A DNA stretch of 51,960 bases from a phage. Positions 1 through 51,960 of the stretch are shown one piece after another. The stretch lies in sequence record PZ000615.1. One strand, written 5' to 3'. Position numbers and translations under genes: made by a program. Below the pieces are notes generated by a model. It did no database searches and was not told the DNA's origin. It worked only from the letters and a program-made list of their open reading frames with translations. Every line of letters starts with the position of its first letter. Position 1 is the first letter of the stretch.

Positions 1-355
1 CGTTCGAGTCAAATCTCAGGTCAAATCGGCAATAGCTTGCGCGAAATCCTTTGCACTTATTCCGGACGTAATCGCGATGAATAGCCATGGCACCGGACAC
101 GGAAATCATACCACGCTTGCGCCATTCGTAAAGTGTGGCGTGAGAGATCTTAATGGCCTTGACAAGGGCGGCGGGTGAGCCGTAGTATTCAATCACCTTT
201 TCGAGGCGATGCGCTAATCCGGCCTTTACCTCATCCTTCAGGACGTAATAGCCAGTTGGTTTCTTGCGCTCTTTCTTATCAGCTCCGCGTGAAGTCCCGT
301 TATTACCGTTGAGAGAACGTTTGTCTACCGCGCCGGATTTTGTCAGTTTCGTCAT
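1..355 (-). CDS. Partial CDS (start codon in window, 3' end beyond window edge): putative helix-turn-helix transcriptional regulator
   Basis: Minus-strand open frame from ATG at 355-353 with GAGGA Shine-Dalgarno upstream, no stop before position 1 (hence absent from ORF track); translation contains HTH-like segment ISHATLYEWRKRGMISVSGAMAI; divergent from helicase operon. Confidence 0.4.
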   Translation of the reverse strand, partial: MTKLTKSGAVDKRSLNGNNGTSRGADKKERKKPTGYYVLKDEVKAGLAHRLEKVIEYYGSPAALVKAIKISHATLYEWRKRGMISVSGAMAIHRDYVRNKCKGFRASYCRFDLRFDSN

Positions 356-367
356 GATATTTTCCTC

Positions 368-412
368 AATAGCACTTTTTGTTAAACCAGTTGTCTTGTT
401 GAGTGTTATTAT
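368..412 (+). promoter_or_regulatory. Promoter-like cassette (palindromic element + -10-like hexamer)
   Basis: AATAGCACTTTTTGTTAAA 368-386; TATTAT 407-412, 22 nt after TTGTTA; upstream of helicase. Confidence 0.4.
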
Positions 413-450: not shown

Positions 451-2484
451 ATGACTATGAGTATTCAAAAGCAAATTGCCGCTCTTGATCCTGAGTACAT
501 GAAGAGGGTTAAGAGTCGATTCACGTTTGGCGATCTGGTTCCTTATGACTACCAGGTTGTCATGTACGGCGAGACGGCAAAGAGGATCGCCAATTACGAA
601 CATCCTTTCTACATCAAGGCGTCAGTGTCAGCAGGTAAGACCGTAGGTTTTGCCATGGTTGCTGCTCAATGCCAGGTCATGAATCTGCCTATGCTCATTC
701 TTGCTCGTCAGGCTGAGATTGTTCAGCAGGACAGCGAGGAACTTTCAAACTTTGGCGTGAAGAACTCCGTTTACTGCGCAGGGCTTAACACCAAGTCTGC
801 ATACTTCCCGATAGTAGTCGGATCTGAGGGTTCTGTTGCTAATGGCTTGGACAAGGCTCTTGCTGACTTTTATCCTATGGTTGTCGGCATTGATGAATGC
901 CATCAGGTAGACTGGGAGGACTTAGCTGAGGCCATTGAGAACAATGAATCAAGGGATCAGATGTCACGAGCGAAAGACAAGCCTTATCGCGTCAACGAGC
1001 ATCACGTGGCGGAGGATTACAAATTTCATGACTTCGATGTCGTCGAATATGGTACAGGGCGAGCACAGTACACAATCATCATCATGGAATTAATGCGTCG
1101 TTGCCGTGAGCGGTACGGTCGAGAGCTGAGAGTTTTCGGAATGACTGGATCAGAGTTTCGCGGCGTGGTTCCTATCCTGGTTGAAGATAAAAAGCATCGT
1201 GGTTTCTGGCGTGAGCAGGTCACTGACATCAACACATCTTACCTTGTTGATTTCGGCTCTGTTGTTCCGACAATATTTGGTGGCACTGACGGACTCAAGT
1301 ATGACCTTGATGAGTTCAAGGCATCCAGTCAGGATGGAACTGCTGATTTCGGCGCGAAAGAAATGAAAGCCATGGAGAAGAAAATTCATGAGTCAGCCAG
1401 CTTAACCAAACAGATCATGACCAAGGTTGCAGAAATGGCACAGACCAGGAACGCCGTACTGATAACGTGCGCGGGTCAGCGTCATTGTAAGGAGGCGGCT
1501 GAAGCGTTGCCACCTGGTAGCACTTACGCAATCATCACCGAAAAGACTAACGCCAAGAAGCGACAGCAGATCTTGGATGACGTAAGGGCGGGTAAAATAA
1601 AATACACCTTCCAGGTTATGGCTTTGACAACTGGCGTCAACGTTCCAAACTGGGACTTTAGCGTCATACTCCGCAAGATAGGGAGCTTGACACTCCTGAT
1701 CCAGTTGCTTGGGCGCGGGATGCGATTACTCAAAAAGCAACAGATTGAAATGGGTATGGTCAAAGAGGATCATCTCGTCTGGGACTTTGCCGGAACAATG
1801 GATGAACTCGGACAGCTTTACTTTGATCCGATTCTGGAGCAGTACCAATATCAGAGAAAAGGAGACCGCATCAAAGACCAGGAAAAATGCCCTATCTGTG
1901 GGACAATGAACAGTGGATTTGCTCGTCGCTGTATGCACCGAGACGAACACGGAAACCGTTGTGAGTATTTCTGGAAGTCTCAGATCTGCTCTGACATTGT
2001 CGACAAGCGAACCAACGAGATCATAAAGAAAGGTTGCGGAACCGAAAATGATGTGGTAGCAAGGGTATGCCGTTGCTGTGACGCTTCTCTAATCGATCCC
2101 AACGAGAAGCTATCCGGCAAGATGTACACGAAAAATGATTGGTGTGACGTTCTTGACTTCAAGGTCGGCATGACCAAGAGCCAAACCGGAATACTTTATC
2201 ATTACCGACTCAGGGACGCCGTAGGGGTTGAGTTTGACGCCGTGGAGAAGTTCTTCCCTGAGAGCGATAACAAGATCTGTAAAACGCTCTGGCGGTCAAA
2301 GGGGGTTACTCCTCACGTAGTCGGAAAGGACAACCGCAATTTACTCGGTCTGACAAAAAACGCTGTCAAGATTTTTAGCATGAAACACCTCATACTCTCA
2401 CCAATCCGAGTTACTCACCGGAAAAATGGGAAGGGTGAGGACATTATTAGCCGCAAAGACTTTGGAGGGGAAATTGATAACTGA
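451..2484 (+). CDS. SF2 (DEAD/DEAH-type) ATP-dependent helicase with C-terminal Cys-rich zinc-ribbon region
   Basis: Track ORF 403..2484; first ATG at 451; Walker A SAGKT, Walker B/DEAH-like GIDECHQ, C-terminal CPICG...RRC...RCCD cysteine clusters. Confidence 0.75.
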   Translation: MTMSIQKQIAALDPEYMKRVKSRFTFGDLVPYDYQVVMYGETAKRIANYEHPFYIKASVSAGKTVGFAMVAAQCQVMNLPMLILARQAEIVQQDSEELSNFGVKNSVYCAGLNTKSAYFPIVVGSEGSVANGLDKALADFYPMVVGIDECHQVDWEDLAEAIENNESRDQMSRAKDKPYRVNEHHVAEDYKFHDFDVVEYGTGRAQYTIIIMELMRRCRERYGRELRVFGMTGSEFRGVVPILVEDKKHRGFWREQVTDINTSYLVDFGSVVPTIFGGTDGLKYDLDEFKASSQDGTADFGAKEMKAMEKKIHESASLTKQIMTKVAEMAQTRNAVLITCAGQRHCKEAAEALPPGSTYAIITEKTNAKKRQQILDDVRAGKIKYTFQVMALTTGVNVPNWDFSVILRKIGSLTLLIQLLGRGMRLLKKQQIEMGMVKEDHLVWDFAGTMDELGQLYFDPILEQYQYQRKGDRIKDQEKCPICGTMNSGFARRCMHRDEHGNRCEYFWKSQICSDIVDKRTNEIIKKGCGTENDVVARVCRCCDASLIDPNEKLSGKMYTKNDWCDVLDFKVGMTKSQTGILYHYRLRDAVGVEFDAVEKFFPESDNKICKTLWRSKGVTPHVVGKDNRNLLGLTKNAVKIFSMKHLILSPIRVTHRKNGKGEDIISRKDFGGEIDN

Positions 2485-4507: not shown

Positions 4508-5644
4508 ATGCAACAGAAGATTACAGACGAACAATTGATCGCTGAGCGCGAATCCGGCAAAACTCAGCGTCAGATCGCTCAAGAGTACGGAATGAACATC
4601 CGAACCATCGAGCAACGTTGCGCACGCCTTGCAAAGAAAGGCCATGGTCACGGAAACAAGCACGTGTCTGTTCACGTTCCAGAAGGTTTCGCCGTAAAGG
4701 GAACCTCCACCATGATTCGCGGCAACGGCGAGGAGGTTGTTCGTTGGGTTAAGACCGACCAGGACAAAGAAAAAATGGCGGCAATGATGGACGCTGCTAT
4801 CGAGGCTTTCTGTGAGGAAATCCCACGAGCAACTCCACAAGAAAACAAGCTTGATGGAAAGTTTGTTGAGGGTCAGCTAGCTCTATATCCGGTATTTGAT
4901 CTGCACATTGGCGCTATGGCTCATAAGCACGAATGCGGTGAAAACTACTCAACCGACATCTCTGAGAAAGTCCTTAAGGACTTCTTTGAATACGCTGTTG
5001 AGATTTCACCTCATGCAGAAAAGGCCGTTCTTTTAATCGGCGGTGACTTCTTGCACTCTGACGGATTGGACGCGGTGACACCTGCTAGCGGTCACGTTCT
5101 GGATCAGGACTCGCGCTACGCTAAGCTTGTTCACGTAGCTATCCGATCTGTTCGTCGTGCTGTTTCGAAAATGCTGGATAAGCACAATGAAGTTGAGATC
5201 CAGATTATCGAAGGGAACCACGACCAGGCCGGAATGATCTGGCTGCGCGCTTCAATGGCGGCATTCTATGAAGATGAGCCGCGAGTGAATGTCGACGTTA
5301 GCCCTATGATCCTACACCGGACAAAGTGGGGTAAAACGCTATTGGGTTATACTCACGGTCACACCATGAAGAAAGCCGAAACCCGACTCTCAGCCATGGC
5401 GACAGATTTCCGTGAAGAGTTCGGAACAAGCAAGTACATTTACACGCACTCCGGACACTGGCACCATCAGACAATCACTGAGCACAGCTTAGGCATTGAC
5501 GAGGTTCACGGTCAGCTCGGAGCTAAGGACGCATACGCAGCTCGCGGCGGCTGGCGCTCATATCGTCAGGCGGCTGTCATTGTCTACTCCAAAGAGTTTG
5601 GCGAAATCGGGCGCTTTGTGTATCGCCCAGAAATGAGCAAGTAA
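4508..5644 (+). CDS. Calcineurin-like metallophosphoesterase with N-terminal HTH domain
   Basis: AAGGA SD before ATG 4508; motifs DLHIG (DxH), GGDFLHSDG (GDxxD), EGNHDQ (GNHD/E), HSGHWHH (GHxH); N-terminal QRQIAQEYGMNIRTIEQR HTH-like. Confidence 0.65.
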   Translation: MQQKITDEQLIAERESGKTQRQIAQEYGMNIRTIEQRCARLAKKGHGHGNKHVSVHVPEGFAVKGTSTMIRGNGEEVVRWVKTDQDKEKMAAMMDAAIEAFCEEIPRATPQENKLDGKFVEGQLALYPVFDLHIGAMAHKHECGENYSTDISEKVLKDFFEYAVEISPHAEKAVLLIGGDFLHSDGLDAVTPASGHVLDQDSRYAKLVHVAIRSVRRAVSKMLDKHNEVEIQIIEGNHDQAGMIWLRASMAAFYEDEPRVNVDVSPMILHRTKWGKTLLGYTHGHTMKKAETRLSAMATDFREEFGTSKYIYTHSGHWHHQTITEHSLGIDEVHGQLGAKDAYAARGGWRSYRQAAVIVYSKEFGEIGRFVYRPEMSK

Positions 5645-6207: not shown

Positions 6208-6788
6208 TGATTATCATTTTGAACGCACCAGCCGGAGCCGGAAAAGACACCATTCAGCAAGCAATTGCGGAGCTGCATGAGGTGTCACAGCTCAGCTTTA
6301 AAAAGCCTATGTTCGCTATGGCTAATGCCATGCTTGGCGATCTGGGGTTCATGGAATTCATGGACGCCTACAACAACCGCGAGCGAAAAGAAAAGCCACT
6401 TGAATTGCTTCACGGCTCAAGCCCTCGGCAGTTCATGATCTGGCTGAGTGAGAGCGTTATTAAACCTCACTTTGGCGACAAGCATTTTGGTAATCTGCTT
6501 TATGACGATTACATTATGCACGAGAATGACGGCTACTATGTCGGAGTTGTCAGCGACGGCGGGTTTGAGAGTGAGACGATTGCTCTGATCGATACTGGAG
6601 TTCCGGTTCGTCTTGTTCGACTTCATCGTGACGGCTACTCGTTTGCCGGAGACTCACGCGATTATGTCAGTCTGCCGCTCTACGCTAATAGCCCTACGTA
6701 TGACTACCAAGAGTTTGACGTTCAGTTAACTGAAGGTTTGCCAGTTGTGGCGGCGCTGGATATTCTCTCAATGGTCGGGTTGAAATAG
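6207..6788 (+). CDS. P-loop kinase, deoxynucleoside monophosphate kinase-like
   Basis: N-terminal IIILNAPAGAGKDT (GxxxxGKD/T P-loop as in phage dNMP kinases); TAATG coupling to upstream gene. Confidence 0.55.
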   Translation: MIIILNAPAGAGKDTIQQAIAELHEVSQLSFKKPMFAMANAMLGDLGFMEFMDAYNNRERKEKPLELLHGSSPRQFMIWLSESVIKPHFGDKHFGNLLYDDYIMHENDGYYVGVVSDGGFESETIALIDTGVPVRLVRLHRDGYSFAGDSRDYVSLPLYANSPTYDYQEFDVQLTEGLPVVAALDILSMVGLK

Positions 6789-6828
6789 CACGAATTGCTA
6801 AAACTTGCGCAACGGAATGCGCTATTAT
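6784..6828 (+). promoter_or_regulatory. Promoter-like cassette
   Basis: AATAGCACGAATTGCTAAA 6784-6802 (contains stop TAG of upstream gene); hairpin GCGCA-ACGGAA-TGCGC; TATTAT 6823-6828. Confidence 0.4.
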
Positions 6829-8954: not shown

Positions 8955-10535
8955 TTACCCCAGTAAGCGCGGGTTAACGTAAACGTCATCACCAATCAGG
9001 CAGACGTAACCTAATTCCTCAAGCTTTGGCAGCAGGTGATCACGAATGCGCTTTGTGACTCCAGACTGACCAAAGAAAGGTTTGATCTTGCGTACACCCT
9101 CATAGATTGAGCGGAACTTGATCACGCCTTTAGCGTTCTTGCCACGCTTGACGATGAAGTCAACGAGAACCCTCATCTCAGCATCGTCACCAGCATGACC
9201 AGCAGAGTTAGCTGATGAGAGATAAGTTTTGCTCAGCTCATAGAACATCGCAACAGCCTCTTGCATCGTGTCAAGGTCAACCGTCTTTGACTTCTGAGGG
9301 TTTGAGTTCTCACTCGACCAATTCCGGATCACGTGGATAACCGACGCAAGGCGAATCGCCTGTTTGTCAAACTTACCCATCGCACCGCGCAGCATCGTGT
9401 GAGAATACTTCCCACCATCCGCCAAGTGTGGCTCCATCTCCTGGCGTGCTCGGTTGAGATACTTCATCGCAGCCGCTCCCACCTTGAGCTTAATATCGCT
9501 CTCACTCATGATTTCGTGGATCAGCTTGTAGTATTTGGCGACAAGCTCTGAATCAATCGGGGTGTAAGTGCTTTCGCCTTTCTCATCGACGAACTTACGA
9601 CGACCCAAGTAAGACTCCTCACGAACCAGCAAGAAACGCTCCGATACACCGATACCACGCGAACCAGCCGCCATGATACCTTCTATCGTTTCGTCCTGAG
9701 CGATAACCGCAATCGCCCCCATAGCTACAAAGCTCATGTTGTTGTCAGCATTCGCACGAGCGATGGATACGTGACCGCTATCCCAGGCTTTAAGCACAAG
9801 TTCACTGTTCGTCTTGCGGCTCGCGTCCTGGTATGTCATGCCGAGCAATGAGTTGATACTCGTTGCCTCATCCGATATCACCGAGAAGTTGCCTTGTCGG
9901 TTGTTGATTCGAGCCAAGCCCTCCGGCGTGGTGTCGGATACAGGAAACACGATGTCACACATCTTTTCGAGTTTCTCCTCCAGATCCTCAAGCTCCTCGT
10001 AGAGGGATGCCATATCAGCTTTAGACTTCTCCCCCTTGAGTTCGGTCTTACACGCTGAGATCTTAGCCATTAAGCGTTTGCGCTCTTTCTTGCGCAGCTC
10101 GTTAAGGCGGTCAACCTCTGCGATCATTGGTTTGATTGCCATTGAGTTAATGGCTGATTTACCTGTCGATGGTGGCTGACTGGTTACGACGTAAAGCGCC
10201 GTTGGCTGATCTGTCCCGTGGTAGTCTACAGTGAATCGACCAAGCATAGCAGCAGACACGCACGCAAGAAAATGCATGTAAGCCGATGACTCTGGGAACT
10301 GAACAGAACGCGCCGCGTTTGCCGAAAGCTTTCCGACGATATCCAGATCGTTACCGAGAGAGATCACAGGATATTTGTCATTGCCGCCGTCAACGTCTTT
10401 AACCTCCGTCCAAAACGAGGACGAATGACGATACCCGTTAGCCTTTATTGCAACGCGCAGAGGTGAGATCCCCTCATTTTCTGCGATCACAATAATCTGC
10501 TGTGGCGTCATGGTCTGTTGCATATGGTCAAACAT
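8955..10535 (-). CDS. Large hypothetical protein with P-loop-like motif and coiled-coil segment; possibly replication-associated (DUF3987-like by recollection only)
   Basis: ATG with AAGGAG SD; PSTGKSA P-loop-like, SVISDEAT Walker-B-like, Glu/Lys-rich coiled coil ELEDLEEKLEK. Confidence 0.55.
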   Translation of the reverse strand: MFDHMQQTMTPQQIIVIAENEGISPLRVAIKANGYRHSSSFWTEVKDVDGGNDKYPVISLGNDLDIVGKLSANAARSVQFPESSAYMHFLACVSAAMLGRFTVDYHGTDQPTALYVVTSQPPSTGKSAINSMAIKPMIAEVDRLNELRKKERKRLMAKISACKTELKGEKSKADMASLYEELEDLEEKLEKMCDIVFPVSDTTPEGLARINNRQGNFSVISDEATSINSLLGMTYQDASRKTNSELVLKAWDSGHVSIARANADNNMSFVAMGAIAVIAQDETIEGIMAAGSRGIGVSERFLLVREESYLGRRKFVDEKGESTYTPIDSELVAKYYKLIHEIMSESDIKLKVGAAAMKYLNRARQEMEPHLADGGKYSHTMLRGAMGKFDKQAIRLASVIHVIRNWSSENSNPQKSKTVDLDTMQEAVAMFYELSKTYLSSANSAGHAGDDAEMRVLVDFIVKRGKNAKGVIKFRSIYEGVRKIKPFFGQSGVTKRIRDHLLPKLEELGYVCLIGDDVYVNPRLLG

Positions 10536-14674: not shown

Positions 14675-14721
14675 GATTATGACCGATTCGAGACTGATTG
14701 GTTTAGCAAAAAGTGCTATTT
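14675..14721 (-). promoter_or_regulatory. Promoter-like cassette (minus orientation), first of leftward operon
   Basis: Minus strand AATAGCACTTTTTGCTAAA; CATAAT-like hexamer ~23 nt downstream; then CATCGAAACAGGAGG-ATG. Confidence 0.4.
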
Positions 14722-14902
14722 CTTGCAGATTGTCATAATGACTATATTGTTGCTGTATTGTTCATGATCGCATAACGCCTTTGCTCATATAGCAATAGTG
14801 ATTGTTGCTGTGATAGCAAATGTGTGCGCTCATTATTGCTTGATATGCATTAAGTTGAGAGGGGTAGAGATGGTGATTCGCTGTTCGCCTGATGACTGTT
14901 GG

Positions 14903-15445
14903 AAATTTCACGGAGGATTTGGGGAGGATTACGGAGGATTTCTCGGACTCAATTAGACGAACCTTTCAGAGCTACAGCTCATCTTTCTCCATCCCTGACT
15001 TGTCTGATATGCTACGGAGGGTTGCGGAGGATTACGGAGGATTTGCAATTCGGCTCTAGCCCTTGGTGCGCGTGGCTTGCGAGAGATTTACGCCGGAAAA
15101 TGTCGATTTCTCTATGGGGGCTGGTATAGATATACATAGAGAATGATGAGAAAGTGATGTGTCCATACGCTCACAGAAAAAATCCGATAACCCAATAATC
15201 AACATAATCCTCCGTAAACTATGAAACGATACCAATATACCAATAGAGAGATATAGTAATAATATATATAAAAACCCTTATATTACATATATATATAGTA
15301 TTATTATATACTATCTATACTGATTAGCTTGGTCATAAAATGAGCTGATTTTACGGAGGATGGTTCCGGCGCAATCCTCCGCGATTTCGATAAGTGTATG
15401 ATTTGCAAGGCTGCATTTACGGAGGGTATTTTCCGCAAAACACGT
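14903..15445. repeat. Iteron/AT-rich non-coding region A (candidate origin or regulatory hub)
   Basis: Tandem CGGAGGATT-like 10-11-bp repeats at 14911-14940 and 15015-15043, inverted/extra copies at 15206-15214, 15351-15362, 15371-15384, 15415-15428; AT-rich core 15225-15330; blocks shared with region B. Confidence 0.6.
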
Positions 15446-15458
15446 AAAAACAACCCAA

Positions 15459-15503
15459 AATAGCACTTTTTGCTAAAACCGCACCCCTGGCTTTTGCTAT
15501 TAT
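15459..15503 (+). promoter_or_regulatory. Promoter-like cassette, first of rightward array
   Basis: AATAGCACTTTTTGCTAAA 15459-15477; TATTAT 15498-15503; then CAACGAAACGAAAGG. Confidence 0.4.
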
Positions 15504-29172: not shown

Positions 29173-30302
29173 AAAAGCAACGTTATGATAGCGTAAGGGT
29201 AAAGGCTCGTTTCGATGAGAATGGTTTTCTTGTTGATACGCCTATCGTTGCGCGAATTGGTGCGCAGACCTACTACAAGGCCGACGGCACTCCGAGAGTC
29301 GAATTCCGTCCGGCATCCGAAGTTTTCAAGCCTGAGTCACTGGCTACCTATCAGGGCAAGCCGATCACTCTCGGTCACGTGACCGTAAACAGCAAGAACG
29401 CAAAGCAGGTCGTTGTTGGCTCCTGTTCCGGCGTTGGCGTTCGAGCTGATAATGGCGTTGAGGTTCCGGTAACTGTTTATGACAGTGAAGCAATCGGAAA
29501 GGCAAAGCAAAAGATCGCGGCGGAGTTGTCGGTAGGTTACACGTCTGTAGATATTGAAGAGCCTGGTTGGGGCTGTAACGAAACTGGTGAGTACATTCTC
29601 GACAAGGATAAGAATGACTCAGATCACATTCCCGCCTCATGGGTTCGATTTGATGCTCTGCAAACTGAAATCACAGTTAACCATGTTGCGATGGTTTTTC
29701 GTGGCAGGGCTGGAATTGCGAAATTAAACCTTGATAGCGAGCAAGAGTTCCCGTATGATGAACTCGTTCCTAACAAAACTGATGAGGGTTTAGAAATGAA
29801 GAAAATCAAAATTGACGGCGTTGAATATGAAGTTCCGGTTCAGGTTGCGATTGCTCTTGAGAAAGCTGACGCTGCTGTTTCCGGCATCTCTGTAAAAGTT
29901 GACGCTGCCGTTGACGCTGCTGTTGCAGTAATCACCGCCGAGCGCGATCAGTTAAAAGTGAAGGTTGACTCAATCCCTGAACTGATCAAGGCCGCTCTCG
30001 ACAAGGCGAAAACTGACGAGGCCGCACTCGTTGCCCTGGTAGCTACAGCCGCCGATTTCGGTGTTAAAGCTGACGGTATGGACGCGAAAGCGATCAAGCT
30101 GGCAGTAATCAAAGAGGCTTCAGGTATCGACGCGAGCGCAAAAGATGACGCTTATATTGATGCATCGTTTGATTTTGCTGTAAACTCTGATAAAATGGCG
30201 CAACAGCGTCTTACTGTAAACGGCAAAGAGAAAGGCGACGAGAAAGGCAAGAAGAACGACGCCGATGAGATTCCAAACCCTCAGAACCGTTTCCGTAAGT
30301 AA
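29169..30302 (+). CDS. Putative head scaffolding / prohead core protein
   Basis: GTG start overlapping upstream stop; C-terminal Ala/Lys/Asp-rich helical region; position between morphogenesis and capsid genes. Confidence 0.5.
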   Translation: MKKQRYDSVRVKARFDENGFLVDTPIVARIGAQTYYKADGTPRVEFRPASEVFKPESLATYQGKPITLGHVTVNSKNAKQVVVGSCSGVGVRADNGVEVPVTVYDSEAIGKAKQKIAAELSVGYTSVDIEEPGWGCNETGEYILDKDKNDSDHIPASWVRFDALQTEITVNHVAMVFRGRAGIAKLNLDSEQEFPYDELVPNKTDEGLEMKKIKIDGVEYEVPVQVAIALEKADAAVSGISVKVDAAVDAAVAVITAERDQLKVKVDSIPELIKAALDKAKTDEAALVALVATAADFGVKADGMDAKAIKLAVIKEASGIDASAKDDAYIDASFDFAVNSDKMAQQRLTVNGKEKGDEKGKKNDADEIPNPQNRFRK

Positions 30303-30354
30303 TACCGATCAGGGAGGTTAGCTCCTCCCTAAACTTTCCATTAAGGAGATTATC

Positions 30355-30882
30355 ATGGCTCTAATTCGTGCATCATATACAGTTCATCGTGGTCAGGCTT
30401 ACGTTGGTCAGATCGCGGATACCTCACTTTACAACATCGACGGCGCTTGCGCTGCTGACGGAGTAGTCCCGATTGGCATCCCTGTTGCAGTTCAAGAAGT
30501 TCAGCCGATTGAAGGTCACAAGGTAGTCAAGCTGGCAACTGACAACTCCCTGCCAATCCTGGGTGTAACAATTATGTCTCACTCAAACTCTCCTGCTGGT
30601 CAGTACGAGGATGGTTTGGCGGTAAACGTAATGACTCATGGCCGAGTGTGGGTTAAGGCGTCAAACGATCTGACTGAAGCTCAAGCGTCATTTGACAAGG
30701 TTGTTTCATTCGACGCTAACGGCGTTGTTACTGACGGCGGCGCGGTTAAGACTGGCTACAAATTCACTGGTGAGATCCTACAGGGTCAGCAGGAGCCAGG
30801 CGGTCAGCCGTTCAAGCTGGTTAAAATTCAGGTGCTGCAATCAGCCGCAATTCCTTCATCTGGCGGCGTGACTGGTGAGTAA
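30355..30882 (+). CDS. Putative head decoration/accessory protein
   Basis: AAGGAG SD; position directly upstream of major capsid gene; Gly/Val-rich. Confidence 0.4.
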   Translation: MALIRASYTVHRGQAYVGQIADTSLYNIDGACAADGVVPIGIPVAVQEVQPIEGHKVVKLATDNSLPILGVTIMSHSNSPAGQYEDGLAVNVMTHGRVWVKASNDLTEAQASFDKVVSFDANGVVTDGGAVKTGYKFTGEILQGQQEPGGQPFKLVKIQVLQSAAIPSSGGVTGE

Positions 30883-46010: not shown

Positions 46011-46029
46011 TTTAGCAAAAAGTGCTATT
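46011..46029 (+). promoter_or_regulatory. Inverted copy of palindromic element upstream of tail fibre gene
   Basis: TTTAGCAAAAAGTGCTATT (reverse complement of AATAGCACTTTTTGCTAAA) embedded in larger inverted repeat AATAGCG...GCTATT; between terminator 45964-45985 and tail fibre start. Confidence 0.3.
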
Positions 46030-49275: not shown

Positions 49276-50325
49276 CTATTGGTTATCTTGAGAGAAAAGC
49301 TCTTTGAATTGGTACTTCACAAACTCCGGAGTAGGGAGTTCAACTTCATCGGCGTTATTCTCATAACTAGGCCAAACGTCATTTTTTACGCACTCAGCAA
49401 ACACGTGAATGACGCTGGTGTACTGCTGACGACCAATCGTTAACTGAGCGTGGTTCATAGTGAAACCGAGTGGCAGGAAAGGCATTTTCTTTTCCTGAGC
49501 CAGGAACCGGATAACGATAGGTCGAGTCTCCTCAAACGCCGCCTTGAACAGATCCCGTTGCAATGCCATTTTCAGGTAATAGCCAAGGTTAAACGCATGG
49601 CGAGCAAATTCAGAAGGCTTAACACTCTGAGTGGTCTTGTAGTCAGTAATAACCACAATCTCCGGATGAATCTCAGGATCGTAACCGTATCGACGGATTA
49701 TGTCTGGGTCTGTGATCGTGTCGACGTGATCGAGTCTAACCTTAACCTTAACCCCGAAAATGGTTCCGAAGATTGAAATCTCACGCAATGCTGTTTTGCT
49801 GTTGATGGTTGCAGCGTGGCGCGGGATGTTCAGTAACGTCTGACGCATGTATTTGCAAGAGTCATAATCCTCAGCCTTAACGAGTTCCTTACCCTCACTT
49901 TTCGCGTTCCACTCCGCGAGCATATCCTCAAGCCACAGAACGTTTACATCAATTTCGTTCTTTGCCGCCATAACCAGCAACTCAGGATATCCCTTACCGC
50001 TAGTACCAATCAGGCCACACGCCTTTAGCTTTGACGCCAGGGCTGTTTGACTCGTGATGCAGTCTTTCAGCTCTCCAGCCATAACACCGCGAGCGTACAA
50101 GCTTTCAAACTTCTCGACCTCAAGCATCATCGTATGTGACTGAGTACCGAAAGCCAAAGCTTGAGTTTCAACTCGCTCCTTGAATTTCCAACTCGCTGGT
50201 GACTTCTCGTGAATCTCTGCGAGAGATGATCCTGATACATACTCAGAAACCCAAGTATCCTCAGCGTGATACTCATCGTTTGACATCTCCTCGTTGAGGA
50301 AATACTGAAAGCGTGGCTGTTCCAT
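49276..50325 (-). CDS. PD-(D/E)xK-type exonuclease (recombination exonuclease)
   Basis: Track ORF 49276..50388 starts at TTG; ATG at 50325 after CAGGAG; motifs RLDHVD and VITDYKT (D...D/ExK). Confidence 0.55.
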   Translation of the reverse strand: MEQPRFQYFLNEEMSNDEYHAEDTWVSEYVSGSSLAEIHEKSPASWKFKERVETQALAFGTQSHTMMLEVEKFESLYARGVMAGELKDCITSQTALASKLKACGLIGTSGKGYPELLVMAAKNEIDVNVLWLEDMLAEWNAKSEGKELVKAEDYDSCKYMRQTLLNIPRHAATINSKTALREISIFGTIFGVKVKVRLDHVDTITDPDIIRRYGYDPEIHPEIVVITDYKTTQSVKPSEFARHAFNLGYYLKMALQRDLFKAAFEETRPIVIRFLAQEKKMPFLPLGFTMNHAQLTIGRQQYTSVIHVFAECVKNDVWPSYENNADEVELPTPEFVKYQFKELFSQDNQ

Positions 50326-50355
50326 ATCTGACTCCTGTTCGTTTGTGTGTTGTGG

Positions 50356-50399
50356 AGTATACCCGATCTCATTCGTTGCGTTTAGCAAAAAGTGCTAAT
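50356..50399 (-). promoter_or_regulatory. Promoter-like cassette (minus orientation) upstream of exonuclease-erf-ssb operon
   Basis: Minus strand AATTAGCACTTTTTGCTAAA then TATACT ~21 nt downstream, then CAGGAG SD and ATG 50325. Confidence 0.4.
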
Positions 50400-50407
50400 T
50401 TTCACTC

Positions 50408-50860
50408 AACGGAGGATTGCGGAAATTTACGGAGGATTTGAAATCTGGCTCTAAGCCTTGCCACTACTGGATTTGTCGACAATCTACGCCGGAAAATGTC
50501 GATTTTCTCGCTCTATAGACACCAAAAACGCAGAAAACAGGCACAAAAAAAGATCCAATAACCCAATAATCAACATAATCCTCCGTAAATAAATAATATA
50601 CATCACATAGATAATGATAATATCTATATATATTAGACACTTACGTATATCTAAAGGTTGAAAATAGCTCATTATTTGAACGAAATTCGCGGAGGATTGA
50701 TCCGGCGTAAATTCCGCAAATTCTGTAAGTAACTGATTTTGTTGAATGCAATTGCGGAGGATTTTTTCGTGAATCTCCCGTAAATCGGCCTTGTTTAAGT
50801 TTGTTAAATCTTTTTCCGGAGGATTGCGGAGGATTGCGGAGGGTTTGCGGAGGATTTTTC
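50408..50860. repeat. Iteron/AT-rich non-coding region B, paralogous to region A
   Basis: CGGAGGATT copies at 50410-50440, 50575-50588 (inverted), 50688-50700, 50750-50765, four tandem copies 50816-50856; AT-rich core 50580-50660; shares TACGCCGGAAAATGTCGATTT and ATAACCCAATAATCAACATAATCCTCCGTAAA with region A. Confidence 0.6.
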
Positions 50861-50887
50861 CGGCGTAAAAAAACCCGCCGAAGCGGG

Positions 50888-51829
50888 TTAGTTTTTGCGG
50901 TTGATTAGGACTATCGGATCGTAAAGTGCTCGCTTGCAACCGGATTTGAATCCTGAGCGGTCATCATTTGGAATGATAACTTTCAACTCCCTGTCATCTG
51001 CCATGTATAGAGTATCAAGATCGCCTGACGCACAAGCCACTCTAAGCTCACGCTCTCCGGTATACCTGTATGCGACAATCTCAAGGTTGCTAGGCTCAAT
51101 GCACGCCCAACACTCTTGGCCTGTAGCCTCATGAACTCGGACGGCATCAAACCACGAATTAACAAGGTATATGGCTTTGTCTGTCGATCCTACCTTTATG
51201 ACTGCTCCTCTCGTGTAGTCTCTGGCATAGAACCGCTCATCGCCAAGCTCATCTATAAATAGAAGGTTGCAGTATTCATCATCAAGATCATCTCCCTGCA
51301 CGAGCTGCATCGGGAGTACGTGAAAAACGCTCTCAGCTCCATTCTCAAGGGTTTTCACGCCTACATCGAATGATTCACCTATTAGCCCCTCAAACATCGT
51401 CAGAGGCGTCTGCGCTCGCTTCTCAGTCCTATCCAGAACCGCCTGGCATTTGTCATGCTCGGCAGTAGCTCCAAAGCTGTAGCCTGGGTCTTTCGCGGCT
51501 CTCTTGTTCTGCTTGATTACATATTCCTGAGGAACCTTGCCGAGGAATCTACCGAGGATGTTAATGCATTCACTGTAAGGCTCGCCGGACAACTTCATAA
51601 GCCAGCCAATCCCTTTGTCAGCTCCGCAATTGTTGCAATAAGCCCAACCGTCACCGACCTTGTTGTCCTTTTTGTTTGTCCAACGAAATCTATCCTTACC
51701 GCCACAGTGAGGGCAGTCCTGATGCTTGCCGTTGAAGTATTTCGAGTTCAGGCCGCAAATGCTTTGGAGCGCGTCTTGCCACATGTTAGCCATGTATGGG
51801 ATCACGTCCTCCTCCTGGTACATCATCAT
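50888..51829 (-). CDS. DNA primase (zinc-ribbon + TOPRIM-like)
   Basis: N-terminal CPHCGG...RFRW...CNNCG zinc ribbon; C-terminal acidic motifs GDLDTLY and IIPNDDRSG. Confidence 0.55.
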   Translation of the reverse strand: MMMYQEEDVIPYMANMWQDALQSICGLNSKYFNGKHQDCPHCGGKDRFRWTNKKDNKVGDGWAYCNNCGADKGIGWLMKLSGEPYSECINILGRFLGKVPQEYVIKQNKRAAKDPGYSFGATAEHDKCQAVLDRTEKRAQTPLTMFEGLIGESFDVGVKTLENGAESVFHVLPMQLVQGDDLDDEYCNLLFIDELGDERFYARDYTRGAVIKVGSTDKAIYLVNSWFDAVRVHEATGQECWACIEPSNLEIVAYRYTGERELRVACASGDLDTLYMADDRELKVIIPNDDRSGFKSGCKRALYDPIVLINRKN

Positions 51830-51854
51830 TTTTCAATTCTCCAAAATAGAAACG

Positions 51855-51900
51855 GGCGCGATCATAATAACCGCGCCCGTGTGGGATTGTTTAGCTTTTA
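51855..51900 (-). promoter_or_regulatory. Promoter-like cassette (minus orientation, variant) upstream of primase
   Basis: Minus strand AATAAGCACTAAAAGCTAAA; hairpin GGGCGCGG...CGCGCCC in spacer; TATTAT; GGAGA SD. Confidence 0.35.
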
Positions 51901-51960
51901 GTGCTTATTTTACTACTCGGAGCATTTCTCGACGGTCACAGCGAGTGGTTAGAGCCTTGC

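Follow-up and report, generated by a model that had tools for sequence, protein, structure and literature searches.

The closest described counterparts of the gene analyzed here are gp24 of phage T1 (ST24, YP_003921) and the other orthologues of PHROG 510, closest among them those of the phages Ec_L1 and Phc, which share with it the length, the zinc ribbon and the non-canonical TOPRIM residues. In T1 as in the window, by which we mean the whole stretch of phage DNA that was analyzed (51,960 nucleotides, PZ000615.1), an HTH regulator gene, a terminator and the primase gene follow one another and face a divergent SF2 helicase gene. The two genomes differ in what comes after the primase gene, which is a tail-fibre gene in T1, whereas in the window it is a module of repeats and AT-rich DNA together with the exoVIII-erf-ssb operon. 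Primases of the P4 alpha and plasmid TraC-Sog type, which combine PF08273 with PF13362 (Toprim_3)/PF23639, are homologous to the window protein over the zinc ribbon, the N-subdomain and the TOPRIM domain. However, the window protein possesses neither the fused SF3 helicase nor the winged-helix origin-binding domain of the P4 alpha type, and the EGYATA motif of these primases reads V-N-S-W-F-D-A in the window protein (Glu to Asn, Gly to Ser, Thr to Asp), with S-G-D in the place of DxD. The T7 gp4 primase fragment (1nui) and the RNA-polymerase domains of DnaG (1dd9, 5guj, 2au3) show 7–9% identity to the window protein, which lacks the catalytic Glu, the helicase-binding C-terminal domain of DnaG and the fused SF4 helicase of gp4.

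Two further systems bear on the comparison. Metazoan Twinkle has retained primase motifs, but its Mg2+ ligands are absent, it shows no primase activity and the zinc finger is lost as well (PMC2241861). While the Twinkle N-terminal domain (7t8b) is thus devoid of the zinc finger and fused to a helicase, the window protein has a strictly conserved zinc ribbon and stands alone. RepA of N15 and PY54 unites a DnaG-type primase with an SF2 helicase in a phage that relies on the host polymerase (PMC4889955). We propose the same pairing for the window phage, in which, however, both functions are encoded by separate, divergently transcribed genes rather than by a fused primase-helicase; the likeness is one of domain types.

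Megablast of positions 50300–51960 returned the Enterobacter phages Phc (MZ669808) and Ec_L1 (NC_042122), both of the genus Eclunavirus in the family Drexlerviridae, at 84% identity over the whole query, followed by weaker matches to about 125 Klebsiella T1-like phages. The record of Ec_L1 (51,894 bp) and the window end at the same place, from which it follows that the window is a complete T1-like genome in circular permutation and, by sequence comparison, a Drexlerviridae genome of ~52 kb related to Eclunavirus. In Phc, which is recorded in another permutation, the minus-strand genes ssb, erf and exoVIII precede a non-coding gap, after which come the primase and HTH regulator genes, likewise on the minus strand, and the helicase gene on the plus strand. 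The corresponding genes at the junction of the window are:

50888..51829, minus strand: coding sequence of the primase homologue, 313 aa, orthologue of T1 gp24/ST24 (open reading frame list, PHROG 510, identities to Phc, Ec_L1 and T1)
51905..51960, continuing at 1–355 over the circular junction, minus strand: 3′ end of the HTH gene, Cro-like, 136 aa (junction reading frame; annotated as 'transcriptional regulator' in Phc and T1)
451..2484, plus strand: SF2 helicase (ResIII and Helicase_C, RadD-like match), divergent from the HTH-primase pair

The 136-aa HTH gene, whose product gives a weak P22_Cro match, is split by the record ends and separates the helicase gene (451–2484) from the primase gene on the opposite strand. 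The order of HTH regulator, terminator and primase, divergent from an SF2 helicase-VRR_NUC-Dam cluster, is found at the window junction, in Phc, in T1 and in two further phages, L004 and L005. A sequence-only reading of this DNA had placed the helicase about 1 kb from the primase across the window boundary, provided that the genome is circularly permuted. It does lie across the junction, as the contiguous primase, HTH and helicase genes of Phc illustrate, but the gap is only ~0.58 kb.

The same reading had called the frame at 50888–51829 a primase gene. The gene is real: encoded on the minus strand, it starts with ATG-ATG-ATG, 9 nt after GGAG, and residues 1–302 of its 313-aa product match PHROG 510 'DNA primase' with an E of 1.8e-102. 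The protein is 93–94% identical to its counterparts in Phc and Ec_L1 (94% for Ec_L1) and 59.5% identical to that of T1, which is among the 1,356 phage records with homologues found by tblastn. Nearly all of these homologues comprise ~300–320 aa and are labelled 'DNA primase' or 'DNA primase/helicase'. The latter label, which GenBank carries for Phc and Ec_L1, is an over-annotation, as the polypeptide contains no helicase domain; no NTPase domain was matched and the chain ends ~13 residues past the TOPRIM fold. Homologues of the PHROG 510 group measure 286–344 aa. From 5.8 billion proteins, a word-indexed search retrieved 115 sequences, 113 of them family members of ~230–340 aa, in most of which PF08273 is the sole precomputed Pfam domain and in none of which a Toprim domain is recorded. 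The remaining two (P0114 and P0115) are distant proteins with Toprim_3 and PF23639 whose likeness is limited to the N-terminal ~90 residues (41% identity). The gene is hence an ordinary, already annotated, stand-alone T1-type 'DNA primase' homologue.

The domains of the protein map to the gene as follows:

51608..51730, minus strand: Cys4 zinc ribbon, residues 34–74 with C39, C42, C65 and C68 (PF08273)
51185..51532, minus strand: N-terminal subdomain of the primase RNA-polymerase domain, residues ~100–215
50930..51184, minus strand: TOPRIM-fold domain, residues ~216–300, with the non-canonical acidic set N224, S225, D228, S268, D270, D272 and D278 (pattern of the structural model; motif alignment to relatives with EGYATA and DxD)

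Residues 34–74 match the Pfam family PF08273 (Zn_Ribbon_Prim, the zinc-binding domain of primase-helicases) with an E of 1.9e-8 and 34.9 bits, above the cut-off of 23 bits. The zinc ribbon that had been read from CPHCGG (39–44) and CNNCG (65–69) is thereby confirmed, and its four cysteines are kept in 100% of 28 family and 30 canonical relatives. Further Pfam and NCBIfam matches to Lar, Ogr and IS91 zinc fingers stayed below threshold and are due to the zinc ribbon alone. The N-terminal 100 residues are far more conserved than the catalytic half, with 61% against 17–26% identity to a group of 296-aa Klebsiella proteins.

An AlphaFold2 model built from a 32-sequence alignment (mean pLDDT 87) consists, from the N- to the C-terminus, of helices, a three-stranded zinc ribbon, further helices, a middle domain rich in beta strands and a beta-alpha-beta-alpha-beta-alpha-beta domain. 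Searching 1.8 billion cluster representatives exhaustively with an HMM yielded 3,490 relatives; beyond ~40 full-length clusters of the family, many of these have ~300–350 aa or ~750–960 aa and align through profile position ~270. When 28 family representatives were compared with 30 canonical relatives by hhalign, the match had a probability of 100% and an E of 5.6e-55 over 274 columns, corresponding to window residues 3–289. Hence, the window protein is homologous over its full length to zinc-ribbon/TOPRIM primases of the P4 alpha type, and the earlier description of a stand-alone zinc-ribbon protein of the primase superfamily is borne out, there being no fused helicase. Both the zinc-binding domain and the RNA-polymerase domain fold (N-subdomain and TOPRIM beta-alpha core) that characterize the DnaG-type superfamily are present; the protein combines an N-terminal Cys4 zinc ribbon with a complete RNA-polymerase domain of the DnaG/T7 gp4/P4 alpha type. 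The profile search suggested for zinc-ribbon and TOPRIM families was thus positive for the former, whereas the Pfam Toprim models PF13362, PF13662 and PF01751 gave no match to the window protein at E ≤ 1. PDB searches with the single sequence matched nothing and those with the family profile found no primase, their hits to a designed TIM barrel and others being spurious; a Foldseek comparison of the model with the PDB gave nothing significant.

Acidic TOPRIM-like motifs had also been claimed from the sequence. The TOPRIM fold is indeed present, but in the alignments the position of the canonical Glu is occupied by N224 and that of the first Asp of DxD by S268. Two acidic stretches that could be taken for TOPRIM motifs do not correspond to them and are not conserved across the wider family: DDLDDE (180–185) sits in the loop of a beta-hairpin of the N-subdomain, and NDD (288–290) is largely an insertion specific to the window protein. 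In canonical relatives, x-E-G-[YF]-A-T-A ends strand 1 and A-x-D-x-D follows strand 3, and MAFFT and hhalign agree on the placement of these motifs onto the window protein:

Position 224 (the TOPRIM Glu): N in the window protein; E in 29 of 30 canonical relatives; V in 9, S in 5, E in 3, A in 3, I in 2, N in 1 and D in 1 of 28 family representatives
Position 225: S in the window protein; G in all 30 canonical relatives; D in 13, S in 9 and N in 3 of 28 family representatives
Position 228: D in the window protein; T in all 30 canonical relatives; D in 22 of 28 family representatives
Position 268 (first Asp of DxD): S in the window protein; D in 28 of 30 canonical relatives; N in 12, P in 3, A in 2 and E in 2 of 28 family representatives, among other residues
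Position 270 (second Asp of DxD): D in the window protein; D in 28 of 30 canonical relatives; D in 16, E in 4 and N in 4 of 28 family representatives

The conserved Glu of E-G-x-x-[DT] at the end of strand 1 is therefore missing from the window protein and, as judged from the alignment, from the T1-type primase family as a whole, in which three of 28 representatives keep it as opposed to 29 of 30 canonical relatives. In both alignments DxD falls on S268-G269-D270, of which the second Asp alone is retained, and the canonical N-subdomain residues Y143, L144, K147, Q190 and K198 are lost. The T1 protein carries L224, N225, D228, P268, D270 and D272. Other acids are kept in the vicinity. D228 falls on the Asp position of the DnaG E-G-x-x-D motif (D269 in E. 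coli). D270 is invariant in 21 T1-like sequences, and a pair D270-L-D272, two residues downstream, is conserved in T1-like sequences. Among the 28 family representatives, position 272 is D or E in 21 and position 278 in 25; in the 32-sequence alignment of the Drexlerviridae type, all members carry an acidic residue at 225 or at 228 and either D or E at 278. In the wider family, each of these substitute acids varies.

We consider that the protein, a T1-family stand-alone primase homologue, is probably, if by no means certainly, an active primase with a remodelled metal site. Its zinc ribbon would bind the template DNA and the protein would make, or at least position, primers for host Pol III, partnered by the divergently encoded SF2 helicase and/or a DUF3987 helicase encoded at 8955–10535. 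The metal site would be an acidic cluster of D228, D270, D/E272 and D/E278 in place of the canonical Glu…DxD triad. In favor of this reading, all 32 Drexlerviridae-type sequences keep an acid at 225 or 228 and at 278, the zinc ribbon is strictly kept, position 270 is D or E in 20 of the 28 wider representatives, and an HTH-primase pair opposite a divergent SF2 helicase gene is maintained from T1 to the window phage. Moreover, a DnaG-type primase acting with an SF2 or DUF3987 helicase has precedents in N15/PY54 RepA and in DUF3987 proteins (PMC4889955). Against it stand the replacement of the TOPRIM Glu, the first DxD Asp and the canonical N-subdomain residues as well as the lack of a Toprim model match, and a literature search on the biochemistry of T1-family primases found no evidence of primase activity for any T1-family protein.

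These same substitutions would also fit a protein in which catalysis had been lost while fold and zinc ribbon were kept, similar to the primase-like N-terminal domain of metazoan Twinkle. Such a pseudo-primase would serve as a DNA-binding or adaptor subunit that loads or stimulates the phage helicase(s) or recruits host DnaG or Pol III. The rarity of the Glu (3/28), the first DxD Asp that is essentially never kept, the lost K198 and YL..K motif, residues L224, N225 and P268 in T1 itself and the much lower conservation of the catalytic half (17–26% identity against 61%) all speak for it. Nevertheless, we regard a loss of catalysis as possible but less likely: the replacement acids at 225/228, 270, 272 and 278 are under clear constraint within the Drexlerviridae, the zinc ribbon that Twinkle has lost is strictly kept in the T1-type family, the phage encodes no other primase, and recruitment of host DnaG in the manner of DnaB would be unexpected for a helicase of the SF2 or DUF3987 type. 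That the protein has no part in replication and is instead a Lar-like anti-restriction protein with a zinc ribbon or a nuclease of the TOPRIM type is highly improbable. The Lar matches that could suggest it stay below the cut-offs and do not extend beyond the zinc ribbon. Fold and profile alignment over the full length point specifically to a primase and include an N-subdomain absent from nucleases, and the catalytic Glu of the nuclease type is missing too.

Expression of the primase homologue was predicted from the following elements:

51864..51908, minus strand: T1-type promoter cassette consisting of a 21-nt element (51889–51908), a 20-nt spacer and the −10 box TATTAT (51864–51869), a geometry shared with ~20 cassettes
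51842..51880, minus strand: intrinsic terminator belonging to the HTH gene upstream, with a 13-bp stem and then UUUCUAUUUU (terminator scan; fold −22.9 kcal/mol, z −4.1)
51839..51842, minus strand: ribosome-binding site GGAG (read from the sequence; kept in Phc and Ec_L1)
50865..50889, both strands: bidirectional intrinsic terminator, CCCGC-UUCG-GCGGG and U7, starting at the primase stop codon (two-strand terminator scan and fold)

In T1-like phages, the 21-nt element aaATAGCACnnnTTGnTAAAA is found ~76 nt upstream of start codons, and the authors of the TLS study call its function unknown (PMC11447400). The window holds ~20 copies where 4.2 are expected. Consensus cassettes read ATAGCACnnnTTGnTAAA, 20 nt and TATTAT, and behind nearly every copy there are exactly 20 nt, in which a GC hairpin is often present, and then TAT(T/A)(A/G)T, followed by a leader that is conserved and by a ribosome-binding site. 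The copy upstream of the primase gene, TAAGCACTAAAAGCTAAA, is degenerate with four mismatches and keeps the 20-nt spacing to TATTAT, which lies in the loop of the terminator. In Phc and Ec_L1 this cassette is almost unchanged, the T1 primase gene has the same layout with T1's own degenerate element, and a promoter scan picked TAAACA-18-TATTAT within the terminator stretch. By analogy with the other cassettes, a promoter of the gene's own, which had been proposed for 51855–51900, is hence plausible, and it overlaps the strong terminator hairpin; what counts against it is that the promoter reading derives from a repeated pattern.

Downstream of the HTH stop codon, ACGGGCGCGGTTATTATGATCGCGCCCGT and TTCTATTTT at 51880–51842 form the hairpin and U-run of the terminator, which is annotated at the same place in T1 and would block read-through from the HTH gene into the primase gene. 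Since the −10 box lies in the loop, transcripts starting from the cassette would be missing the 5′ arm of the hairpin and would therefore run past the terminator. The terminator at the other end (50865–50889) is invariant in Phc and Ec_L1. Placed between two intrinsic terminators, the primase gene has the pattern of a single-gene unit and would presumably function as one.

Beyond the primase stop codon lie:

50399..50864, no strand assigned: region B, with ~10 copies of (G/A)CGGAGGATT, TTTACGCCGGA repeats and an AT-rich core at 50590–50680 (18–25% GC) (repeat and GC analysis)
50381..50398, minus strand: T1-type promoter element of the exoVIII-erf-ssb operon, bordering region B on the left (21-nt element scan)

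The primase gene does end at the edge of region B, as had been noted before, with 31 nt to the first copy of GCGGAGGATT. Allowing at most one mismatch, GCGGAGGATT has 25 matches in the window compared to 3.2 expected (reached in 0 of 100 shuffles), and the copies cluster at 14910–15382 (region A) and 50409–50856. Regions A and B are paralogous over ~430 bp and 36 kb apart, and no replication gene lies beside region A. In Phc and Ec_L1 region B is 89% conserved, Ec_L1 having one additional 11-bp unit. A blastn search of phages with region B matched Eclunavirus records only, and its sequence is thus genus-specific. A search of 50300–51960 against Rfam produced only sub-threshold chance matches.

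The sequence-only reading had held that the linkage of primase and iterons strengthens the case for an origin in region B. In its full form, such a proposal would make the primase gene and region B an origin-plus-initiator cassette, with the primase or the neighboring helicase acting in cis on the iterons. Several properties of region B would suit an origin: its ~10 short repeats occur in both orientations, with tandem copies spaced 10–11 bp apart, and flank an AT-rich core of 18–25% GC, its conservation exceeds that of the coding DNA on its flanks (89% compared to 84%), and it is shielded from transcription by a terminator at one end and, at the other, by a promoter that fires outward. In phage P4, whose alpha protein has a related type of primase, the short repeats in use likewise form two distinct clusters, ori and crr. 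The proposed tie to the primase gene, however, does not hold up when other genomes are compared. Adjacency of primase and module is present in the window, Phc, Ec_L1 and L004 and absent from T1 and L005 (primase 66% identical), where a tail-fibre gene directly follows the primase gene. In T1, the equivalent module is the 527-bp cor-exoVIII gap at 29851–30377, with a core of 14–21% GC and the only three exact copies of CTGTTACAC in that genome; a second AT-rich module with repeats at the left end of T1 is equivalent in position to region A. The comparison with T1 and L005 therefore indicates that the module stays upstream of the exoVIII-erf-ssb operon and does not travel with the primase gene. 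Together with the terminator that separates the primase gene from region B and the paralogous region A, which has no replication gene alongside, this shows, at the level of compared gene orders, that adjacency of primase and region B is a consequence of the gene order of the genus and adds nothing to the origin hypothesis.

L004, whose primase is 71% identical, has a module of the same layout at the same position but a different repeat, CGGARGAAAAAACAGGRTT. Identities between the window and L004 amount to 71% for the primase, 76% for the HTH protein, 68% for exoVIII, 63% for ERF, 67% for SSB and 86% for the helicase, and no single candidate for an iteron reader stands out from this co-variation. 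P0002, a close relative of the L004 primase, is like the latter 71% identical overall to the window protein, yet it hardly differs over the N-terminal ~120 residues, in which the zinc ribbon is contained. This speaks against a zinc ribbon that reads the iterons. Furthermore, region B contains no DnaA boxes, whose genome-wide count equals chance, and the GC skew tracks gene orientation with its minimum at region A, where transcription diverges, and is thus uninformative on the origin. Region B may just as well serve the exoVIII promoter as a regulatory array. We consider a primase-region B origin cassette improbable; region B in itself may be either an origin or a regulatory array.

Among the helicases of the phage, the DUF3987 protein (8955–10535, minus strand) corresponds in position to T1 ST9, which is annotated as 'DNA helicase'. 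DUF3987 proteins, which have a winged helix at the C-terminus, have been proposed as phage replicative helicases associated with primases of the DnaG type or the AEP type (PMC4889955). The DUF3987 protein is hence a better candidate for the replicative helicase than the neighboring SF2 helicase, would suit the primase homologue as a partner no less well and is a candidate for binding the repeats of region B. A literature search on the T1 origin and on the host dnaG/dnaB requirement of T1 gave nothing usable. T1 DNA synthesis reportedly needs the host 'elongation' dna genes, a result ascribed to Bourque and Christensen in 1980.

In each T1-like genome examined (the window, Phc, Ec_L1 and T1), two modules of short repeats with an AT-rich core occupy equivalent positions. 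No origin has been reported for T1-like phages, so a role as origin or as master regulatory site is a concrete possibility for these modules, which are worth testing independently of the primase gene. The one point of the gene itself that merits experiment is the non-canonical TOPRIM site common to the T1-type family. We put forward tentatively, as a serious possibility, that the annotated 'DNA primase' of T1-like phages is not a canonical TOPRIM enzyme and represents either a pseudo-primase or the first clade of DnaG-type primases to work without the TOPRIM Glu, with acids relocated to D228, D270, D/E272 and D/E278. Such a 'DNA primase' is annotated in well over a thousand genomes of T1-like and related siphophages. 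If it were a pseudo-primase, it would retain only zinc-ribbon and DNA-handling functions, and these phages would depend on another priming route. T1-like phages, including the window phage, have no DNA polymerase of their own.

The window contains two non-coding modules that are paralogous to each other over about 430 bp, one of which, region B, adjoins the gene of the T1 gp24-like primase:

14890-15440, region A
50399-50864, region B

Both modules share arrays of CGGAGGATT, repeats of TTTACGCCGGA, a conserved block AAYCCAATAATCAACATAATCCTCCGTAAA and an AT-rich core. In T1, modules of AT-rich sequence and repeats are found at equivalent positions (T1 1-539 and 29851-30377), but their repeat sequences differ from those of the window. 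Regions A and B and their T1 counterparts are candidates for either of two roles, origin or master regulatory site. For T1-like phages, no origin has been reported.

Between region A's first CGGAGGATT array and a leftward promoter element (14702-14719) lies a pair of 15-bp palindromes, TTGCT-N5-AGCAA, spaced 24 bp apart, which look like operators for a dimeric regulator:

14781-14795, first palindrome
14805-14819, second palindrome

This promoter element is a copy of the 21-nt T1/TLS element ATAGCACnnnTTGnTAAA, which occurs at about 20 sites in the window, for example:

369-386, plus strand
6785-6802, plus strand
14702-14719, minus strand
15460-15477, plus strand
46011-46028, minus strand

In almost all copies, a spacer of exactly 20 nt separates the element from a TATTAT-like -10 box, and a conserved leader (ctcaACGAAACGAAA) and a ribosome-binding site come next. 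The spacer often contains a GC-rich hairpin or terminator. The whole cassette looks like a phage-specific promoter class without a good -35 box; in print (PMC11447400), the function of the 21-nt element is given as 'unknown'.

Upstream of the primase gene lies the gene of a potential regulator, split by the window ends:

51905-51960 and 1-355, minus strand, Cro-like HTH gene (136 aa)

Its place upstream of the primase is conserved in T1, Phc and L004 (76-98% identity in the latter two), and its product may regulate either the divergent promoters of the helicase and the HTH gene or the repeat arrays.

In some GenBank records (MZ669808, MG732930 and others), this roughly 310-aa primase is labeled 'DNA primase/helicase'. 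It contains no helicase domain and the label is an over-annotation, which appears to have been taken over from the name of Pfam PF08273. The likelier predicted replicative helicase of this phage is encoded far from the primase gene, and its positional counterpart in T1, ST9, is annotated 'DNA helicase':

8955-10535, minus strand, DUF3987 protein (526 aa, Pfam E 2.5e-41)

The repeats also vary among relatives. The tandem array beside the primase terminator is longer in Ec_L1 by one 11-bp unit, CGGAGGGTTTA (L002 ~4529-4570 versus window 50816-50856), and copy number therefore differs among close relatives. In L004, whose primase is 71% identical to that of the window, a module of identical layout lies between primase and exoVIII (4940-5517), but its repeat, CGGARGAAAAAACAGGRTT, is longer. 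The pair of window and L004 would be of use in finding the repeat-binding protein via co-variation.
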